A stretch of DNA of 64,000 nt from Felis catus (lineage: Eukaryota): positions 91,576,001 to 91,640,000 of the forward strand of contig NC_058368.1 in the NCBI RefSeq assembly GCF_018350175.1. The letters are read 5' to 3'. The position numbers and the translations under genes are program-made. Positions 11,378-62,024 of this stretch are shown piece after piece (the first letter of the stretch is position 1; the number at the start of each line of letters is the position of its first letter). The notes under the pieces are model-generated. The model was not told where the DNA came from. It was given only the letters and a program-made list of their open reading frames with translations, and did not search any database.

Positions 11378-11538
11378 ATGCGTCATTCCAAAAGAACTCA
11401 CTGCCCTGATTGGGATAGCAGAGAAAGCTGGGGACATGAAAGCTACAGTGGAAGTCACAAACGGAAGAGGAGGTCCCACAGCAGTACGCAAGAGAACAGA
11501 CATTGTAAACCACATCACCAGTTTAAAGAATCTGATTG
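11378..11538 (+). CDS. CLK4: CLK4 exon 2 (start codon; MRHSKRTHCPDWDSRESWGHESY...)
   Basis: ttaacag|ATG acceptor, 161 nt, donor TG|GTAAAT. N-terminus recognisable as CDC-like kinase 4. Confidence 0.97.
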
Positions 11539-13711
11539 GTAAATCACTCTTGAATCAGTAACATTTTACCACTAGTAGTTTTAATGATTTCTCGTTAGCT
11601 TACGCAGCTTTATTCTGTCAGATTGTTTTATATTTAAGTCAACAAATATTCAGTTGATGTTTATTGAATTCCTATTACAGGCTAGGCACTATATAGGTGC
11701 CGAGACTACAGCTGTGAGCAAACCTTATTTATCTACATCTATCTGGGAGTGGTGGGAGATAGTTGAGTCCCAGCTGCCAGTAATGTAGTTGGGGTGGTGA
11801 GACACACAAACAGTTAAGTAATAGTGATGATAGAATGTCCAGTATGTGCCTTTAACTTGTATGTAGGAGGAGATATGTATTTTGGGATGCTTGTTTAGGT
11901 TCCACAAGGGAGAGAGAATGAGGGGTAGGGAGAGTTCAACTAGATGAGAAAACCAGCATGTATTATTTGGGAATGGTAAAGTACATAGAGGACTCGTCGC
12001 TTACACTGTGTTCTGTAGGTTACATTTGTAGATAAGGCCAGTGAATGTGTGTAGGTTTTTTAGAAGGTTATTGTAAGAACCAGTAATTTAGGGAAAGGCT
12101 TCAATAAAAATTTTTCAGTAGCATGTGTCCTGTTTAATTATACTCTTACTGTAAAATTTGGAGGTAATACATTTACAGAGAATTAAAGGAATTTTAAAGT
12201 ACCTAAATGATTAAAGAAAGGCTAGGTGAGTAGCATTTCTTTCAGTCTGTCTTCCATTAACTTCCCTTTCTCATTTGTTTTGTTGGTTCTATGTTTTCTC
12301 CTTGTTTTGTAGATGTTCCATTGAAACTGTTTGCCAGATTGCTTTCTAAATTAGCCAGCTGGGGTTACTTTAAAAAACAGTATGTAATTTTTTTCCTTCT
12401 CCATGCTAAAACAGACTTGTTCTGCGGAACAGTGAGCTTGTGGGTAGTCACCACAGATTAATCTTTCTTCATCACACACTGTTACATGGGGAAGAGGGAG
12501 GGTTTGCGCCAGGATTGCAATGACCTGAGCTAATTAATGCACTGTAGAGAAACATCTGTACCCTTTTATTAATAAATACAGAATGTCCTGTAAGTCTTAA
12601 ATTAACATCATAGTACTAATGATACATAGGTTTCTTATGTAGGAAGGAAGTGATTTGAGTGGACAGTTCTTGTTTATTATTAACTACATAAATATACTAC
12701 GTCAGTCCAGTTAAACAGCAGGCCTGTGTAGTCTTTGACATTGACACCAGAGGTGTCTAATGGTAATTGTTCTCCATAATGTGGAATATTCTAATATCTG
12801 ATAGTCTTTTTGAAGATAAAAAAAACTTTACAACAGTATTTTTTACAAAATTATTGAAAAGAATGAGAATTGCCATAAACTGTAAAGAAGGTGTCCTTGG
12901 GAGGATCCTAGACCCCCATTATTCTATTCTTAAAAAAATCTTTCTATGTGAGTCTTTGCCTCTGATTATTTCCTGAAAATAGGTTCTAAGAAGGGACATT
13001 TAAAAAAAACTTTTTTTTTTTTTTTTTTTTTTTAATGTCTTACTTATTTTTGAGAGAGAGAGACCGCGGGAACAGGGGAGGGTCAGTGAGAGACGGAGAC
13101 ACGGGATCCAAAAACAGGCTCCAGGCTTAGAGCTGTCAGCACAGAGCCTGACAGGGGCCTCAAACTCATGAACCGTGAGATCATGACCTGAACCAAAGTT
13201 GGACACTTAACTGAGCCACCAGGTGCCCCTGAGAAGGGACATTTTTAAATTAAAGGGTGTGAACTCTTTAACGGTACAAAGCTCTTGCTACATATTGATG
13301 TCTTTTTTTTTGAAAGTTTGTACCAAGTTGTACAATATACTCTTTCTTGCTCTTACCAATATTGGCATTTTGAAATGCCAAGAATAGTGTTTTAATTTGA
13401 ATTTTTAAATTTTTAGTGAGTTTGTCCAATGCCCATTTTTTTCTCTTACAGAGTATTTTACTGATTTATAAGAGCTTTTAATATATATCAATTTTTAAAC
13501 CTTTTTTTGTATGTATTGCAGAGTGTCTCTTCTTTCTTATTTGTCTTTTGCCAGTAACCTGTGAATTGGTCTCCCTTGTTACAGGTTTAATTAGTTTTGT
13601 ACTAATTCTAGTTCTGTATCAGGAAGACTGATATGGCTTCAAACAACTTTATATATTGTGTTAATAGTTTTTACGTGTTTTCTTATGTAATATAGAGTAT
13701 CAAGTCTTAAA

Positions 13712-13882: not shown

Positions 13883-15020
13883 TTTAAACGCCTTAGCCTG
13901 GCATGCAAGATTTTGCATGATCTGTTTCCAGCTTATTTTATTTGCTTCTGTTCATTCCCTATGTGAACAGTGGTCTTGCTGTAGTGTCCATGCACTGTTT
14001 CTCAAGTAATACGTAGACCACCCATCTCCAAGCCATTGTGGCTACAGGTGATCTGTAAGTGTGAGATGGTCATACGCTATTCTTCTCCCCTCCCATTTCT
14101 TCTGCTTGCCACCTTGTCCAAATCTTGACTTCCCTTTAAGATGCAACTCTTTGCTTTTTTATGAAGTCTTCTCTGACCATTTTAAGCAGTTTGAGTTTTT
14201 TCCCCTCTATGATCCTAAGCACTCGTGCAACCTTTCAGCATTTCCTGCATTGTCGAGTTTTGTTTTTATGTGAATGATCTCAAATTGTTCATTATTTGTT
14301 GGCAGGGATTTTGCCTTATATATATTTTTTTATCTTCCACAGGACCTGTGTGGAAATAAAAACGAATGCCCGTAGCCTCATTAGTCTTGGCTATTTTGAA
14401 GGACTACAGTAAAATATTCACTGGATATTCAGTGAATATTTTAGAATTTAAATCAATCTGTTCATCTTGTCTACTCTGTCCATACATGGCCTTTATGATT
14501 CTGTAGACTTTGTTTATGTAATCTCTAAGGCTTGGTTGTTAGAGATTGAAGAGGTCCCTCATTTTTCTAGTTTATCCTCATGGCTTCACCTCATGTTTGT
14601 TAGTCTGTAGATTGTTTATGGATTATCTGCAACTCTAATTTTATGCACTATTCCAGCTAAAGATTATTAGTACTATTTTTTTCTGATAGATTTTGGACTT
14701 TTATAGGAAGGACGCCTTACAGAATTGAAAAGGATGCCCTTGAGAGTATGGTAATTTCTAGGCTGATGTATTACAGATCTCTCCCTGACAGGTCCAAACC
14801 AAGTCGACTCACAGTCTTACCCTGATACCCCAAGTTGTTTCTCCAATGGTTAGAACTTAAGATTGACACTGGGGAAAGGGAGAAGGGGGTTTCTGCATTT
14901 CCTCAGCCTGGATATTCTGCCAGCCCTGTTGAGTAGCAGTTTAGAGATGCTTTCCCTTTATTTCTGCCTAAGCCAGCCCCTGGGAAAATGAACAACAGCA
15001 TATTCTGGGGAGAGAATGAG

Positions 15021-15195
15021 GTTGGTGAGGGCAGTCTAGTCAACATCTGTCACTCCATTGCTTGTCAGGATTCTTTTAGCCGATTTGTCTGACTGGGCAG
15101 GTGTCCCCTCTCTCCCTCAGTGCTCCATGTGCATCCCTCTTGAAGCTTCGCACTCTGTTGAAGAGGACACCATCCCAGGTAGAGAGGGGGACGGG
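15021..15195 (+). pseudogene. 7SK snRNA retrocopy, 3'-truncated (about the first 200 nt of 7SK)
   Basis: Colinear with 7SK as recalled: gtgagggc...acatctgtcactccattg...ggtgtcccctctctccctca...ctccatgtgcatccctc...gaagct...gaagaggac-accatccc...tagag. Many CpG transitions; 3' third of 7SK absent. Confidence 0.9.
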
Positions 15196-15239
15196 AAACT
15201 GGGCCAATTGAATCTATGTCCTTTTCTTTCCATCAGATC

Positions 15240-15398
15240 AAGGATACTTAACTGGGATCCATTGACTTCCTGAGGTCCGTGACCTCTGTGAAATTCCTTG
15301 CCAAGTTTTGTTTATGCATTTGTGCATTTCTTAAGTGAGAGGGTCCATAGCTTTCATCAGATTTTTAAAGGGATCTGTGGATTCAGAAGTTAACCACT
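15240..15398. mobile_element. hAT-Charlie (MER5-family-like) MITE remnant
   Basis: gagagggtccatagctttcatcagatt...aaaggg...gttaaccact terminus. Confidence 0.6.
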
Positions 15399-16294: not shown

Positions 16295-16517
16295 TCATTA
16301 TTTAGAAGCGAGGTCCTTGAATGAGAGAGATTATCGGGACCGGAGATATGTTGATGAATATAGAAATGACTACTGCGAAGGCTATGTTCCTAGACATTAT
16401 CACAGAGACGTTGAAAGCAGTTATCGAATCCACTGCAGTAAATCTTCGGTCCGAAGTAGGAGAAGCAGTCCTAAAAGGAAGCGTAATAGACACTGTTCAA
16501 GTCAACAGTCACGTTCG
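16295..16517 (+). CDS. CLK4: CLK4 exon 3 (Arg/Ser-rich region, HYLEARSLNERDY...SRRSSPKRKR)
   Basis: tttgcag| acceptor, 223 nt, TCG|GTATGA donor; frame continuous with exon 2. Confidence 0.97.
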
Positions 16518-44789: not shown

Positions 44790-46270
44790 GCAGTGGTCGT
44801 TTTCGGCCACGGAGCGGCGCTAAGGCACCATCCAGGACCGATTCACAAAGTTCCACGGGGTTTGAAGTTCTGAACTTTTAAAAAAGTGTCAGAAAGGTTA
44901 ATTCACAAGTTTTAGCGGCATTGCCCCCAGGCACGAACGATGCTCGGGCCAGAGGTGGGCTGCGGAAGGCGCTCTGAGTCTCCGGACGCACCGCAGACCT
45001 CTGGGGACCGCAAGGGACCTCGGGCTGGGGAGTCGCGGAGGTGCGCGCGCGGCAGTGGGGTTGCTGCTGGGCGCCCGGGACAGGTGAGGTGGAGATGCGC
45101 GCTGCGCCGGGGGTCCGCCGGGCGCGCGCGGGGGGCTCGGAAGAGCCAGCTCCCTTCCCTCCCCCGCCCCTCGGCGCGCGGGGCCGGCCGGGCCGCTCCT
45201 CCCCTGGGTGGGTCCCGGCTCCTTTTCTGGTAGGATCTATTTGCATAGAGGAAACTGCCCAAAGTGGCCGCTGTGGAGGAGCTGGCGGTGGAGTGGGGGG
45301 CGTGCGCCGCAAGCCGCTGCTGCCCCGAGGCCGAGCCCCGCGCGCGGCCGGCCTCGTGCCTCGGACTCTCCCGCCTGCTCCCCGCGCGCGGGCCAGCACC
45401 CGCGGCTGCGCACCGCCCCCTCGGAGACCCACGCGCGACGAGCGCGCCATGAGCCAGGGCCAGCGCGCCGGCGGCGACGCGCGTAAGGGCGGCCCGGCGG
45501 GCGGCTGCGGCGGCGGGGGGCACCCCGCGACGACGGCCGGGGCCTGGGCGGTGAGCGCGCTGTGCCTGCTGCTCTCTGTGGGCTCGGCGGCCGCCTGCCT
45601 GCTGCTGGGCGCCCAGGCGGCCGCGCTGCAGGGCCGGGTGGCGGCGCTCGAGGAGGAGCGGGATCTGCTGCGGCGCGGGGGGCCGCCGGGCGACCTGGCC
45701 GCCTGGGCCGAGCCGCACCTGGAGCGCCTGCTGCACGAGGTGAGGGGCGCGGGGCGCGCGTGCGGCAGGGGAGCGTCTGTGCGCCCGGGGCGCGGGCACC
45801 GCGGCCGTCTCTCCCCGAGGAGCGGTCGCCTGCCCTGCGTGCGTGAGTCCCTCCCGGCGGCCTGAGCGTCTGGCTGGGGGTGCCGGTCCCCGAGGGGGTC
45901 CTGCCGCCTCCGCTCCGGCCGCAGGGTCACATTGCAGGGCGCAGCGGCCGCAGGAAACGCGAGTCAGAAGGGCTGTTTCGGGAGCGAGTAGTGCGGAGGG
46001 AGAGAGAGGAAAGACCACGGGCTTAGAAATAGTGACAGACCTGGGGGGGGGGGGGCGGCGAGTGTCCACCGGGGTGTGCGCTCAGACCCGTCGCTTCCCG
46101 CCGGAGGTGAGCGCCTGGCTCCTCCTCTGTGCCGGGCTAATGACCAGGCTCGTGTGGGAAGTGCCTGGTGGGTGACTCGTCTCCGGTGGCGGCCACTGTC
46201 CCGATGCTGCTGTACTCGGAGAAGTGGCGGCCCGGTGGAGGGAAGCCTTAGACGGACCCGAGGGCCAGGG
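44790..46270. promoter_or_regulatory. COL23A1: CpG island / promoter of COL23A1
   Basis: Extremely GC- and CpG-rich block with GC boxes surrounding the first coding exon. Confidence 0.9.
45449..45739 (+). CDS. COL23A1: COL23A1 exon 1 coding part: cytoplasmic tail, type II transmembrane anchor and start of the juxtamembrane coiled coil (97 codons)
   Basis: Kozak gcgccATGa; AVSALCLLLSVGSAAACLLLGAQAAALQGRVAALEEERDLLRR...WAEPHLERLL matches collagen XXIII as recalled; donor GAG|GTGAGG. Position downstream of CLK4 on the same strand matches known mammalian synteny. Exon 2 not found in the window. Confidence 0.95.
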
Positions 46271-49200
46271 CCCTTGGAGGGTTCCGGTCAGCCGGACCTT
46301 CCCTGTACACCTTCTCCCAGAAAGGTTTGTTTCCGAGCAGCTCCATTCTGGAGATGCTGTGTTCTGGGGCTCTTAAATGCGTACTCAGTGCCCCGGAAAC
46401 CTGAGGCGACAGCCGCCTCGGCTTGGCTTGGTAGGATGAGGGGAATTAAACACCCGGTTTCTGCTTTTAAGCGATGCCACCTGGGGAATGCAGCTACATC
46501 CTGAGTTTCCTCGCCCTTGTTGGAAGTGTCGAATGAGACTCTGCGACACTTCTATGAAGGTTGCTGCTGTGGCCTCAACACCCTCATCCGTCGTGTGCAT
46601 CAAAATCTCCACGTTCTGTGCACCAGTGCCCGACCCTGGTAGAACTGAAGACAGGCGGGTGGGCTGGCCAGGGGTCCCCCGGATGAGCTCACCTCCGTGG
46701 CCTGAGCCACACTCTTCCTCCTGGGAGAGGTGGATCCCAAGTCTAGTGCCCAGAGGGGCATCCTTCACTGTATCCTGAAAATCCCCAGTGTTTCAAGGTA
46801 GGGGAGAGGAAGGCCAGGCCTGCTGCTACCAATTCCCCCTAAACCGTGCTGGCTGTGATCTTCATTAATGCATTGAGCTGCGTGTTCTTTGAGGAGTTCC
46901 TTCGGAATCTTTTGGGGAATGGGAGAAGGCTGGACCACACCTTCTAGTCCACCCTACCTGTTTCTTAAGCCCCTTCCATTGAAGCCAGCCTTCCGTCTCC
47001 TCCAGCATGGTTTTGGGCAGAACTGCTGCTGCATGAATTGATTTCCTATTATTGCCTTGAACGTGCCCGCAGACTTCGGAACTGGCAACTGGTGGTGAAG
47101 GTTTCGTAATTACAGCCCATTATCTTTTGGCAAATCCCTAGAGACCGGGGTGTTGACTTGATTGATGGAGGACCAGTAAAATTTCTATCTGTAAGTGCAG
47201 TAACCGGAGCTGTTCTCTCCCCTAGGAGGCCCCTCTTAGGAAAAATAAACTGGGAGGCCTGATTGAGTAAATCAGAAGTCCTGGTACAAGCAGCTTATAA
47301 ATTTGTGTCCATGTTAATGGCAATGGGGACAGGGCAGATGTCCTGACAAAGCAACCCCAGCTGAAAAGTGTGGATTCGCAAATCCTAAACTCTGAGGATT
47401 AAGGATCTGAGGGGACAGAAGGCAGTGGCTTCATCCTGCTCCCTCCAGTGGCACCGATATTACCTGGGTGGGACGGTAGTGCTTGGGCTAGTAGTTACTG
47501 GGCAGAACTTAATCTCTCTTGGGCTCTGTCTCTCTCAGTCTCTCTGCTCTTGATTTAGGAAGGCAAAGGGAATATTTCACATCCTGGGATTTGCACTTGA
47601 AGTTGGCCATACCATTCAGCAGGCTGGCGTTAGCACAGGATGTATGTGAACGTATGCTTGGTTTGGTTAGGTTTGAGTTAAAGTGCATGTGCTTGGAGCA
47701 CAGACTGGCTGGTGGACTGTCAGAGATGCCGTGGCATGAATGCACTTGGAGTTGGGCTTCTGGCTGTTTGGGGGTCCCCTGTGGGAGGGCATCTCTTTCC
47801 TAGGATATCCGTCTGTTCCTGCCAAAAGCCATTCTTCTCACAAATGTCACCAGCTGGGAAATGTCCACAGCCTGGTGGGCAACACCTACACCCCCTCGCT
47901 GAGATGAGGGAGGCACATAATGAAGAGTTGGTAATTGGCTTTAAATAGATGTGGGGGCACCTGGGTGGCTCAGTCGGTTAAGCGTCCGACTTCAGCTCGG
48001 GTCATGATCTCACGGTCCGTGGGTTCGAGTCCCGCATCGGGCTCTGTGCTGACAGCTCAGAGCCTGGAGCCTGCTTCGGATTCTGTGTCTCCCTCTCTCT
48101 GACCCTCCCCCGTTCATGCTCTATCTCTCTCTCAAAAATAAACACAAATGAATAAGTAGATGTGAAGATACTTTTTGGAACCGTTAGATATGAAGGACAA
48201 AGAAATATTGAACTGCAAATCTCTTAAGGAAAGACCGTTTGGACTTGAACGTGGTTTTTGGTTCTGGTTTGTTTTCAGTGAAGCCTGTGCTGAAGTTGGT
48301 ATGTATGCGAGGGTGCCTGCAGCTCGTCCTTTATCAACAAGCTTGTTTTCAGAGTTTCGGAGGCAGAAACCACATCCAAACCGAGGAAGAGAAATCCTTG
48401 CCAACCACACACAACTTTAATGTCAGGGAAAAATATTTAAAAATAAGCCAACAAAAGCCACTGTTAATATGCGACCCGATGTCTTTGTTCCCTTGGGAAC
48501 AGAGCTGTGACATAACTTTGTTGGGACTGGCTGATGTGCCTGATAATGTAGATACAGAAGCTGCAAAAAAGGGAATATTCATGTTAACATGGGATTATTA
48601 AAGAGCCTTCCCATGGTACAAAATGAAAGAAATGGTTTTCAGAACATAAAAGTCATTAACGATAGTATCTTCATTATGACCCAAAGATATTCAATGGAAA
48701 ACAAGCATCTGATATTATGCTATTAAATGTGCCTTAAATGGGCTAAGTCACCAACCGCCCATTGGTTACACCTATAATTACAGCATTACAACAGCCTGAA
48801 TTTTAGAGTAAATAAAATAGCTTTCATACTACAGTAACAAATTTAATGGAAGGATTAAAGAAATATTTAGTTGTATTCAGAGGAGACCATTTCCAGCTTA
48901 CAATGGATTTATTGTTGGCTCCCGGTCCTCCATTGTCCAGACCAATCAGTTTGAAAACAAGAAAAACCCAGAGACTCTGGGTAAAATTCAATTTCCTTTC
49001 CTACCATCAACGACTATACGTATTGGTTAAATTACCGTAAAACCCAGAATCACATGTAGCTTTTTCGGCCTCTGCGGCAGCCTGTCACTTTGTCGGGACC
49101 GCTCTGTGGGGCACACTTGAATAAAGATCCAGTTTTTGAATCCCCTAGCACAACAGGAGATGAAGAGTCCATCATAGCTACGTTTGTTTCCTTGACATTT

Positions 49201-61470: not shown

Positions 61471-62024
61471 AAATCCACGATGTGGCCTTTAAAATGTTTT
61501 GGAATAATTCTAGATTTATAGAAAAACATAGTTACAGGGGTGCCTGGGTGGCTCAGTCAATTGAGCATCTGACTTGGACTTGGGTTGTGAGTTCGATCCC
61601 CATTTCAGGCTCTCCGGGGTCAGCATGCAGCCTGCTTCAGATCTTCTGTCTCCCTGTTTCTGCCTAGCTCCTGCTTGTGAGCTTGCTCGCTCTCTCTCTC
61701 TCTCAAAAATAAATAAACATAATAAAAGAAAAATATAGGGGCGCCTGGGTGGCTCAGTCAGTTAAGCATCCGACTTCGGCTCAGGTCATGATCTCATGGT
61801 TCATGGGTTTGAGCCCTGCATCCAGCTCTATGCTGATAGCTCAGAGCTTGGAGCCTGATTCGGATTCTGTGTCTTCCTCTCTCTCTGTCCCTCCCCTGCT
61901 CACACTGTCTCTCTCAAAAAGAATAAACATTAATAAAAATTTTTTGAAAAAAATGAAAAATGTAGTTACATATGTACATAACTGTAACACATTTGTCCAA
62001 AGTAAGAAATTAACTGTAATAACT

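Follow-up and report, generated by a model that had tools for sequence, protein, structure and literature searches.

Intron 2 of CLK4, a gene for a splicing kinase, contains in the cat an old copy of the 7SK snRNA carrying what look like a branch point, an acceptor and a donor. Is this RNA fossil used as an exon, and if so, does its use serve the RNA, the protein or neither? The original prediction was that the copy had acquired its splice signals by substitution and forms a poison exon, i.e., one whose inclusion shifts the reading frame and sends the transcript to nonsense-mediated decay (NMD). We followed it up in the window, that is, the whole 64,000-nt stretch of Felis catus DNA analysed here (NC_058368.1, positions 91,576,001 to 91,640,000).

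The + strand of the window encodes CLK4. A 12-exon coding model starting at ATG 11378 yields 481 amino acids, 472 of which are identical in human CLK4 (P0026) and 476 in a carnivoran entry. The exons flanking intron 2 are as follows.

11378..11538, + strand: CLK4 exon 2, 161 nt, start codon at 11378
16295..16517, + strand: CLK4 exon 3, 223 nt

Several features of the surroundings may be mentioned here. The segment 17355-17846, comprising intron 3, exon 4 and intron 4, aligns with CLK1 (L031) at 87% identity over 498 columns, and its core at 91%, far above the remaining paralogous introns; the likeness of the two genes in this segment has been described previously (PMC3187705). One contig (C17) was suspected of carrying a CLK4 retrocopy and proved to be CLK1. 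Downstream, positions 45001-47000 form a strong CpG island (79% G+C, 143 CpG per kb), probably the start of the next gene, which by human synteny is presumably COL23A1. Rfam tRNA matches at 47959-48043 and 61542-61611 are heads of a tRNA-derived SINE, which has about 55 matches within the window, and not tRNA genes.

The copy itself lies in the sense orientation, and the Rfam match extends beyond the part whose homology can be demonstrated.

15020..15190, + strand (sense): old 7SK snRNA copy within intron 2 of CLK4, covering 7SK from nt 1 to about nt 172 (Rfam RF00100, alignment to RN7SK, shuffles)
15191..15299, + strand: stretch covered by the Rfam extension, where homology to the 7SK 3' half is unsupported (low posterior probabilities, shuffles)

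The RF00100 match spans 15020-15299 in sense (80.6 bits, E 3.6e-19). As the reference 7SK we used the genome's own RN7SK gene (L012), chosen among the 20 best Rfam copies as the only one that lacks a poly(A) tail, has a TATA-like box upstream and ends in a T-run. The copy at 15020-15190 differs from it by 36 mismatches in 168 aligned positions (132/168 identical) and has lost 13 of the 14 CpGs of 7SK. Its 5' half outscores 1000 of 1000 shuffles, and full-length homology was rejected, since the score of the 3' half was reached by 739 of 1000. Hence the predicted 7SK origin stands, with demonstrable homology confined to nt 1 to about 172. The alignment begins exactly at 7SK nt 1 and, unlike L012, the copy has no TATA-like box in the 80 nt upstream; by homology and this promoterless start, it is a 7SK retropseudogene (RN7SKP). 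Neither a poly(A) tail nor a target-site duplication was found at the copy; the best repeats, situated about 470 nt beyond the homology, are chance-like, and erosion of such marks is expected at this age. CLK1 has no 7SK copy, and the exon discussed below is absent from four of four marsupial CLK4 entries, too few to prove absence in that lineage.

Two observations made along the way concern other 7SK copies. The loci L011-L030 include many near-perfect full-length retrocopies with poly(A) tails and target-site duplications, differing from the majority sequence at 0-19 positions, which indicates recent 7SK retroposition in the cat lineage. A pattern scan of metagenomes returned two matches, both of them unrelated bacterial-looking contigs with only 23 matching nt.

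The first candidate role for such a copy is that of its source, a 7SK-like RNA that would bind HEXIM or P-TEFb, which we consider extremely improbable. The GATC (GAUC) motifs of the 7SK 5' hairpin have a role in HEXIM binding, and all three of them are changed in the copy. While 31 of the 44 predicted pairs can still form, the other 13 are broken and none is compensated; the 3' half is missing, the 3' hairpin being undetectable, as is the upstream TATA-like box. The fold of the copy is no better than that of shuffled sequences, though folding z-scores are uninformative, since RN7SK itself does no better (1.08). In favor of an RNA function, a recent preprint calls conserved 7SK pseudogenes potentially functional (bioRxiv 10.1101/2024.12.08.627405).

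The splice signals and their neighborhood are listed below from 5' to 3'.

15067..15068, + strand: upstream alternative acceptor AG, into which pangolin (P0021, P0075) and horse (P0093) entries read from exon 2
15089..15093, + strand: branch-point-like CTGAC, A at 15092 (-29), from 7SK G74>A (alignment; predicted branch point)
15103..15118, + strand: polypyrimidine tract, 14/15 pyrimidines, from the 3' arm of the 7SK 5' hairpin (alignment)
15119..15120, + strand: acceptor AG, from 7SK C102>G (alignment to RN7SK)
15121..15178, + strand: exon X, frameshifting cassette exon of 58 nt (orthologue in the human GTF, mouse AAT72062.1 and 17/101 proteins)
15160..15168, + strand: purine-rich GAAGAGGAC, identical to 7SK nt 142-150
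15176..15184, + strand: donor CAG/GTAGAG, GT at 15179, created by 7SK C160>A and A162>G; its intronic part is weak
15186..15203, + strand: three G-runs right after the donor, missing from 7SK at the same place

The predicted positions of the branch-point A, the acceptor, the exon and the donor GT all hold, and so does the claim that each of the three signals arose by substitution. The alignment to RN7SK proposed as a check bears this out: at the four substituted positions (74, 102, 160 and 162), the window base is carried by none of 20 other 7SK copies, and position 74 retains G in all 20. No YTNAY other than the CTGAC pentamer occurs in the 60 nt next to the acceptor, and the translated footprint of the branch-point region is kept in 14 of the fetched proteins. 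Mouse (P0092) and bat (P0080) entries enter exon X precisely at this acceptor. Purine-rich motifs of the GAAGAGGAC class act as SR-protein enhancers, and the one inherited here is a candidate for such a role. Similarly, the G-runs, whose translated footprint is kept in four orthologous ORFs (P0001-P0004), are candidate intronic enhancers that may assist the weak donor. Use of the upstream acceptor gives a long form, 15069-15178, which in the window has 110 nt and shifts the frame to TAG 16303-16305 in exon 3; in pangolin models (517 aa), it is in frame.

How readily would such signals appear by chance? An exact-pattern search, biased to young copies, found the acceptor AG in 2 of 70 7SK copies of the same genome, and the other AG-bearing copy, L035, has neither the branch-point A nor a GT at the donor. 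This locus (G000:C11:42391913-42394932) is a younger 7SK copy that gained the same AG independently. In a home-made simulation of neutral decay with our own thresholds, without MaxEntScan and with a hand-set CpG rate of 0.42 (probably low), 20000 copies were left to decay, and the full set of branch point, tract, YAG and donor appeared in 0.8% of them when the first 190 nt were considered and in 3.7% over the full length; with the branch point not required, the range was 2.6-14%. The set is thus uncommon, yet a few instances are expected by chance across many old 7SK copies. Since the signals can arise by chance, the case for exon X rests on its use and conservation in other mammals.

The consequence of inclusion can be read from the frame. 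Joined to exon 2, exon X shifts the reading frame, and translation ends after 82 aa at TGA 16322-16324 in exon 3. This stop lies 1114 nt upstream of the last junction, well over the distance of 50-55 nt expected of a poison exon. The predicted frameshift and early stop are thereby confirmed by computation. The exon is 59 nt long in the 7SK register and in most placental gene models, and hence its 58-nt length in the window represents a derived deletion. The 59-nt form still poisons the main frame: the mouse product ends after 76 aa.

This mouse product is deposited as a "clk4 truncated isoform" (AAT72062.1, P0092) and corresponds to exon 2, exon X and exon 3 joined together, matching the exon 2-X frame of the window at 15 of 16 residues within X. 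The paper linked to the entry is reportedly that of Garcia-Sacristan from 2005. In human, Boutz et al. (2015) hand-annotated 33 genes from ENCODE junctions (PMC4281565), and their Data S3 places an exon at chr5:178046840-178046897 (hg19) in two CLK4 isoforms, CLK4_NMD_1 and CLK4_NMD_2, the former of which also carries exon Y, described below. The distance from this exon to exon 3 is 1060 nt, compared with 1116 nt in the window. The NMD label in that GTF was predicted from the reading frame, and some of the GTF coordinates deviate by one base; in particular, exon Y is written there with 66 nt, as against 67 nt in the window, and the donor varies by a base between rows, so that the length of human exon X, written as 58 nt, is uncertain (PMC4281565).

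Exon X is joined to exon 3 in 17 of the 101 fetched proteins, 87 of which are CLK4-type. They come from elephant, sheep, bats, pangolins, rabbit, rodents and lemurs, i.e., from Afrotheria, Laurasiatheria and Euarchontoglires, and many are gene models, some of them ab initio. In addition, an assembly ORF found on five contigs of another species (P0088) represents the 58-nt form spliced to exon 3: of the 25 residues in its tail, 24 fit the spliced frame of the window, the single miss being a TAG that the gene caller read as Q, and 17 fit the unspliced frame. In calling the exon a candidate, the original prediction was too cautious: it is a real, spliced and frameshifting exon in other mammals, annotated as NMD in human and deposited in mouse.

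An apparent GC donor in three ORFs (P0002, P0083, P0086) was rejected, as they have Q where the window has TAG and their cluster mates end at that codon. The same substitution of Q for the window TAG occurs in the Logan/ENA ORFs P0001, P0002, P0083, P0088 and P0089, an artefact of the gene-caller code that mimics a splice-site change.

Forms spliced on one side of the exon are also seen. P0088 is unspliced upstream of X and spliced downstream, while the horse entry P0093 shows the reverse; the human GTF lists CLK4 forms detained on each flank of X (Data S3), and the mouse intron between X and exon 3 is listed as detained (Clk4_intron_6, 1204 nt, ending at the 223-nt exon 3; PMC4281565). These forms would be expected if the 7SK-derived sites acted as a decoy, engaging the spliceosome without completing the reaction and so holding intron 2 in the nucleus, with inclusion and NMD as a by-product. 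We regard this as unlikely, though it deserves some weight, since products with X spliced to both exon 2 and exon 3 are on record (mouse P0092; human CLK4_NMD_2); moreover, it overlaps with the poison-exon reading, as both cut productive mRNA.

In 10 named taxa, the peptide encoded by exon X agrees with that of the window at 13-15 of 15 residues (0-2 differences), and in ORFs of the flanking intron, the share of matching residues is no more than about 45-62%. At the peptide level, conservation of the sequence across placental mammals thus appears strong. Third positions of the frame opened by the internal ATG of the exon changed between mouse and window at 1 of 16 sites; in rodent exon 2, taken as internal calibrator, the figure is 7-9 of 34 (P=0.10; P=0.015 against an assumed neutral rate), a pattern that leans towards constraint at the RNA level and is not decisive. 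By its coordinates, which pointed to the right rows of the human GTF, the human pseudogene RN7SKP70 is probably the counterpart of this locus. RN7SKP70 has been reported as an extreme conservation outlier (bioRxiv 10.1101/2024.12.08.627405).

These data bear on the trivial explanation, that exon X is a cryptic exon which arose by chance, is included at low frequency and removed by NMD, and is tolerated without having any selected role. The frequency of chance signal sets in the simulation (0.8-3.7%), the second 7SK copy with an AG and the internally calibrated P=0.10 are all compatible with it. Nevertheless, it seems very unlikely for two reasons. Firstly, the exon and both splice sites are near-identical from elephant to mouse, which the flanking intron ORFs are not. 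Secondly, RN7SKP70, if it is indeed this locus, is a conservation outlier (bioRxiv 10.1101/2024.12.08.627405).

Conservation could alternatively reflect a protein, and the exon does contain a start codon.

15127..15129, + strand: ATG already present in 7SK (nt 109), with pyrimidines at -3 and +4; its frame in the cat genome does not join that of exon 3

In lineages with the 59-nt exon, this ATG would start a 445-aa kinase without exon 2, or the upstream acceptor would add 37 in-frame residues; the conserved entity would then be the protein, and the cat lineage would have lost it. Six fetched proteins are CLK4 models of 445-446 aa starting in exon X, the form being found in sheep, horseshoe bat, elephant, Mus pahari and lemurs; these are gene-model ORFs, and in this form the isoform starting in exon X that the original prediction mentioned for another mammal does exist. 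Also consistent with coding are the 517-aa pangolin models and the peptide identity in the 10 named taxa. On the other hand, the ATG and its frame are a 7SK heritage, as 10 of 15 codons are unchanged from 7SK, with no stop, and the mere presence of the ATG is hence no evidence of selection. The start has a weak context and lies behind two upstream ATGs in exon 2, and third positions are conserved like the rest. Furthermore, the open frame into exon 3, present in the 59-nt lineages, is absent in the cat genome, where it is one base short of joining exon 3, as predicted, and ends at TAG 16303-16305 after 20 aa; in vespertilionid bats (P0027, P0080), another deletion has broken it, and splicing persists. 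Since the frame was lost at least twice, a new N-terminus is the less favored reading compared with a poison or detention exon, and we consider a coding role quite unlikely. The proposed lineage contrast between an alternative N-terminus and a pure poison exon was likewise overstated, given that the 59-nt form is also a poison exon and that the ATG frame came ready-made from 7SK.

Exon X is one of three alternative exons in CLK4 intron 2.

12313..12379, + strand: exon Y, second cassette, 67 nt, whose junction with exon 2 forms a TGA
14343..14411, + strand: exon Z, third alternative acceptor, with a provisional 3' end (cat P0091, primate P0094 and P0097)

Exon Y is carried by 19 of the 101 fetched proteins. 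As it forms a stop and is found that often, exon X may be partly redundant. The TGA at the exon 2-Y junction overlaps an ATG, and in gene models of 484 aa, an out-of-frame ATG in exon 2 (11436) opens a reading frame that continues across Y and joins that of exon 3. For exon Z, the cat entry P0091 matches the window at 22 of 22 residues (14344-14409) and its exon 2 letter for letter; with a candidate donor at 14409, the exon would be 66 nt long and in frame, but the cat entry continues past this site to a stop.

The 7SK origin, the derived sites, the frame and the splicing in other mammals are observed, and around them we propose, with a probability of about two in three, that exon X is an SR-sensitive poison exon whose inclusion or half-spliced detention would divert CLK4 RNA from kinase production. 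Before the placental radiation, a 7SK retrocopy, probably of the L1 type, would have landed in sense in CLK4 intron 2. 7SK would have provided the pyrimidine tract and the purine-rich exon body; point changes then presumably created the branch-point A, the AG and the GT, and the intron side gained the G-runs, resulting in a cassette exon with a weak donor. Inclusion of X, alone or with Y, would cause the frameshift and the early stop in exon 3 and probably direct the RNA to NMD, while splicing of only one flank would leave a detained-intron RNA. In either case, the share of productive CLK4 mRNA would be lowered, most likely in response to SR-protein activity, to some presumed benefit in fitness. 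The exon would thus be a CLK4-only brake added to the exon-4 switch shared with CLK1.

A study of poison exons by Thomas et al. (2020) reportedly included CLK4. No data on exon X under NMD block or CLK inhibitors were found in the literature searched, in which the published CLK4 switch is exon 4, and the available parts of the supplements of two AS-NMD papers list no CLK4 entry (PMC6547761, PMC7726792).

A broader version of this proposal, which we think unlikely, is that sense 7SK copies are pre-built exon cassettes offering a tract, an enhancer and an ATG, and that the one in CLK4 came to act in two ways, as an SR-sensitive exon serving poisoning or detention and, in the 59-nt lineages, also as the source of a 7SK-derived N-terminus or 37-residue insert, with the cat lineage and vespertilionid bats keeping the off-switch only. 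If so, a splicing kinase would owe some of its regulation as well as some of its protein sequence to an snRNA that controls Pol II elongation.

How does exon X compare with known systems? Its closest relatives are its own orthologues. The mouse product AAT72062.1 has the same exon 2-X-exon 3 structure, differing in a 59-nt exon and 76 aa as against 58 nt and 82 aa in the window. The human CLK4 NMD isoforms resemble it in position between exons 2 and 3, approximate length, NMD class and detained flanks; unlike the present analysis, the rows and passages available give no origin for the exon, and the CLK4 switch of that paper is exon 4 (PMC4281565). RN7SKP70 is likewise a conserved 7SK copy and, by its coordinates, probably spans the human exon. 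The preprint describing it considers a possible functional ncRNA and, in the part available, leaves CLK4 unmentioned (bioRxiv 10.1101/2024.12.08.627405); here the constraint is put down to splicing.

Retroposon exonisation is a familiar process, and exons from antisense Alu elements are another case of it. In LF-SINE exons, e.g., that of PCBP2, retroposed sequence has similarly become an alternative exon (PMC9148063). Both are, like exon X, Pol III-derived, needed few substitutions, often introduce stops and had a ready-made pyrimidine tract. Exon X differs in its source, a sense copy of a non-autonomous housekeeping snRNA with the tract coming from a 7SK hairpin arm, and in its host, a splicing kinase, as well as in having been kept across placentals. 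Within the kinase family, CLK1 and CLK4 skip exon 4 and detain introns 3 and 4, so that unproductive splicing sets kinase output in the same gene (PMC3187705, PMC4281565). Exon X has the opposite polarity, inclusion being unproductive, and it is younger and confined to CLK4.

Poison exons were already known, as was retroposon exonisation (PMC9148063), and so was the exon itself, being annotated in human NMD isoforms and deposited as a mouse truncated isoform. For its 7SK origin, no paper was found in the literature searched, most subscription papers lying outside it. What the origin adds is a dated, base-by-base history of a conserved unproductive exon; as the ancestral 7SK is still in the genome, a minigene could be used to undo each of the changes that made the exon. 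A simple explanation is also at hand for a reported conservation outlier among snRNA pseudogenes, namely host-gene splicing constraint and not a new ncRNA, which is a caution for the pseudogene screens prompted by RNU2-2. For the CLK family, exon X would be a CLK4-specific layer of control missing from CLK1, which may prove useful for paralogue-selective splice-switching. More generally, the locus would provide a clear case of an RNA fossil recycled into gene regulation.
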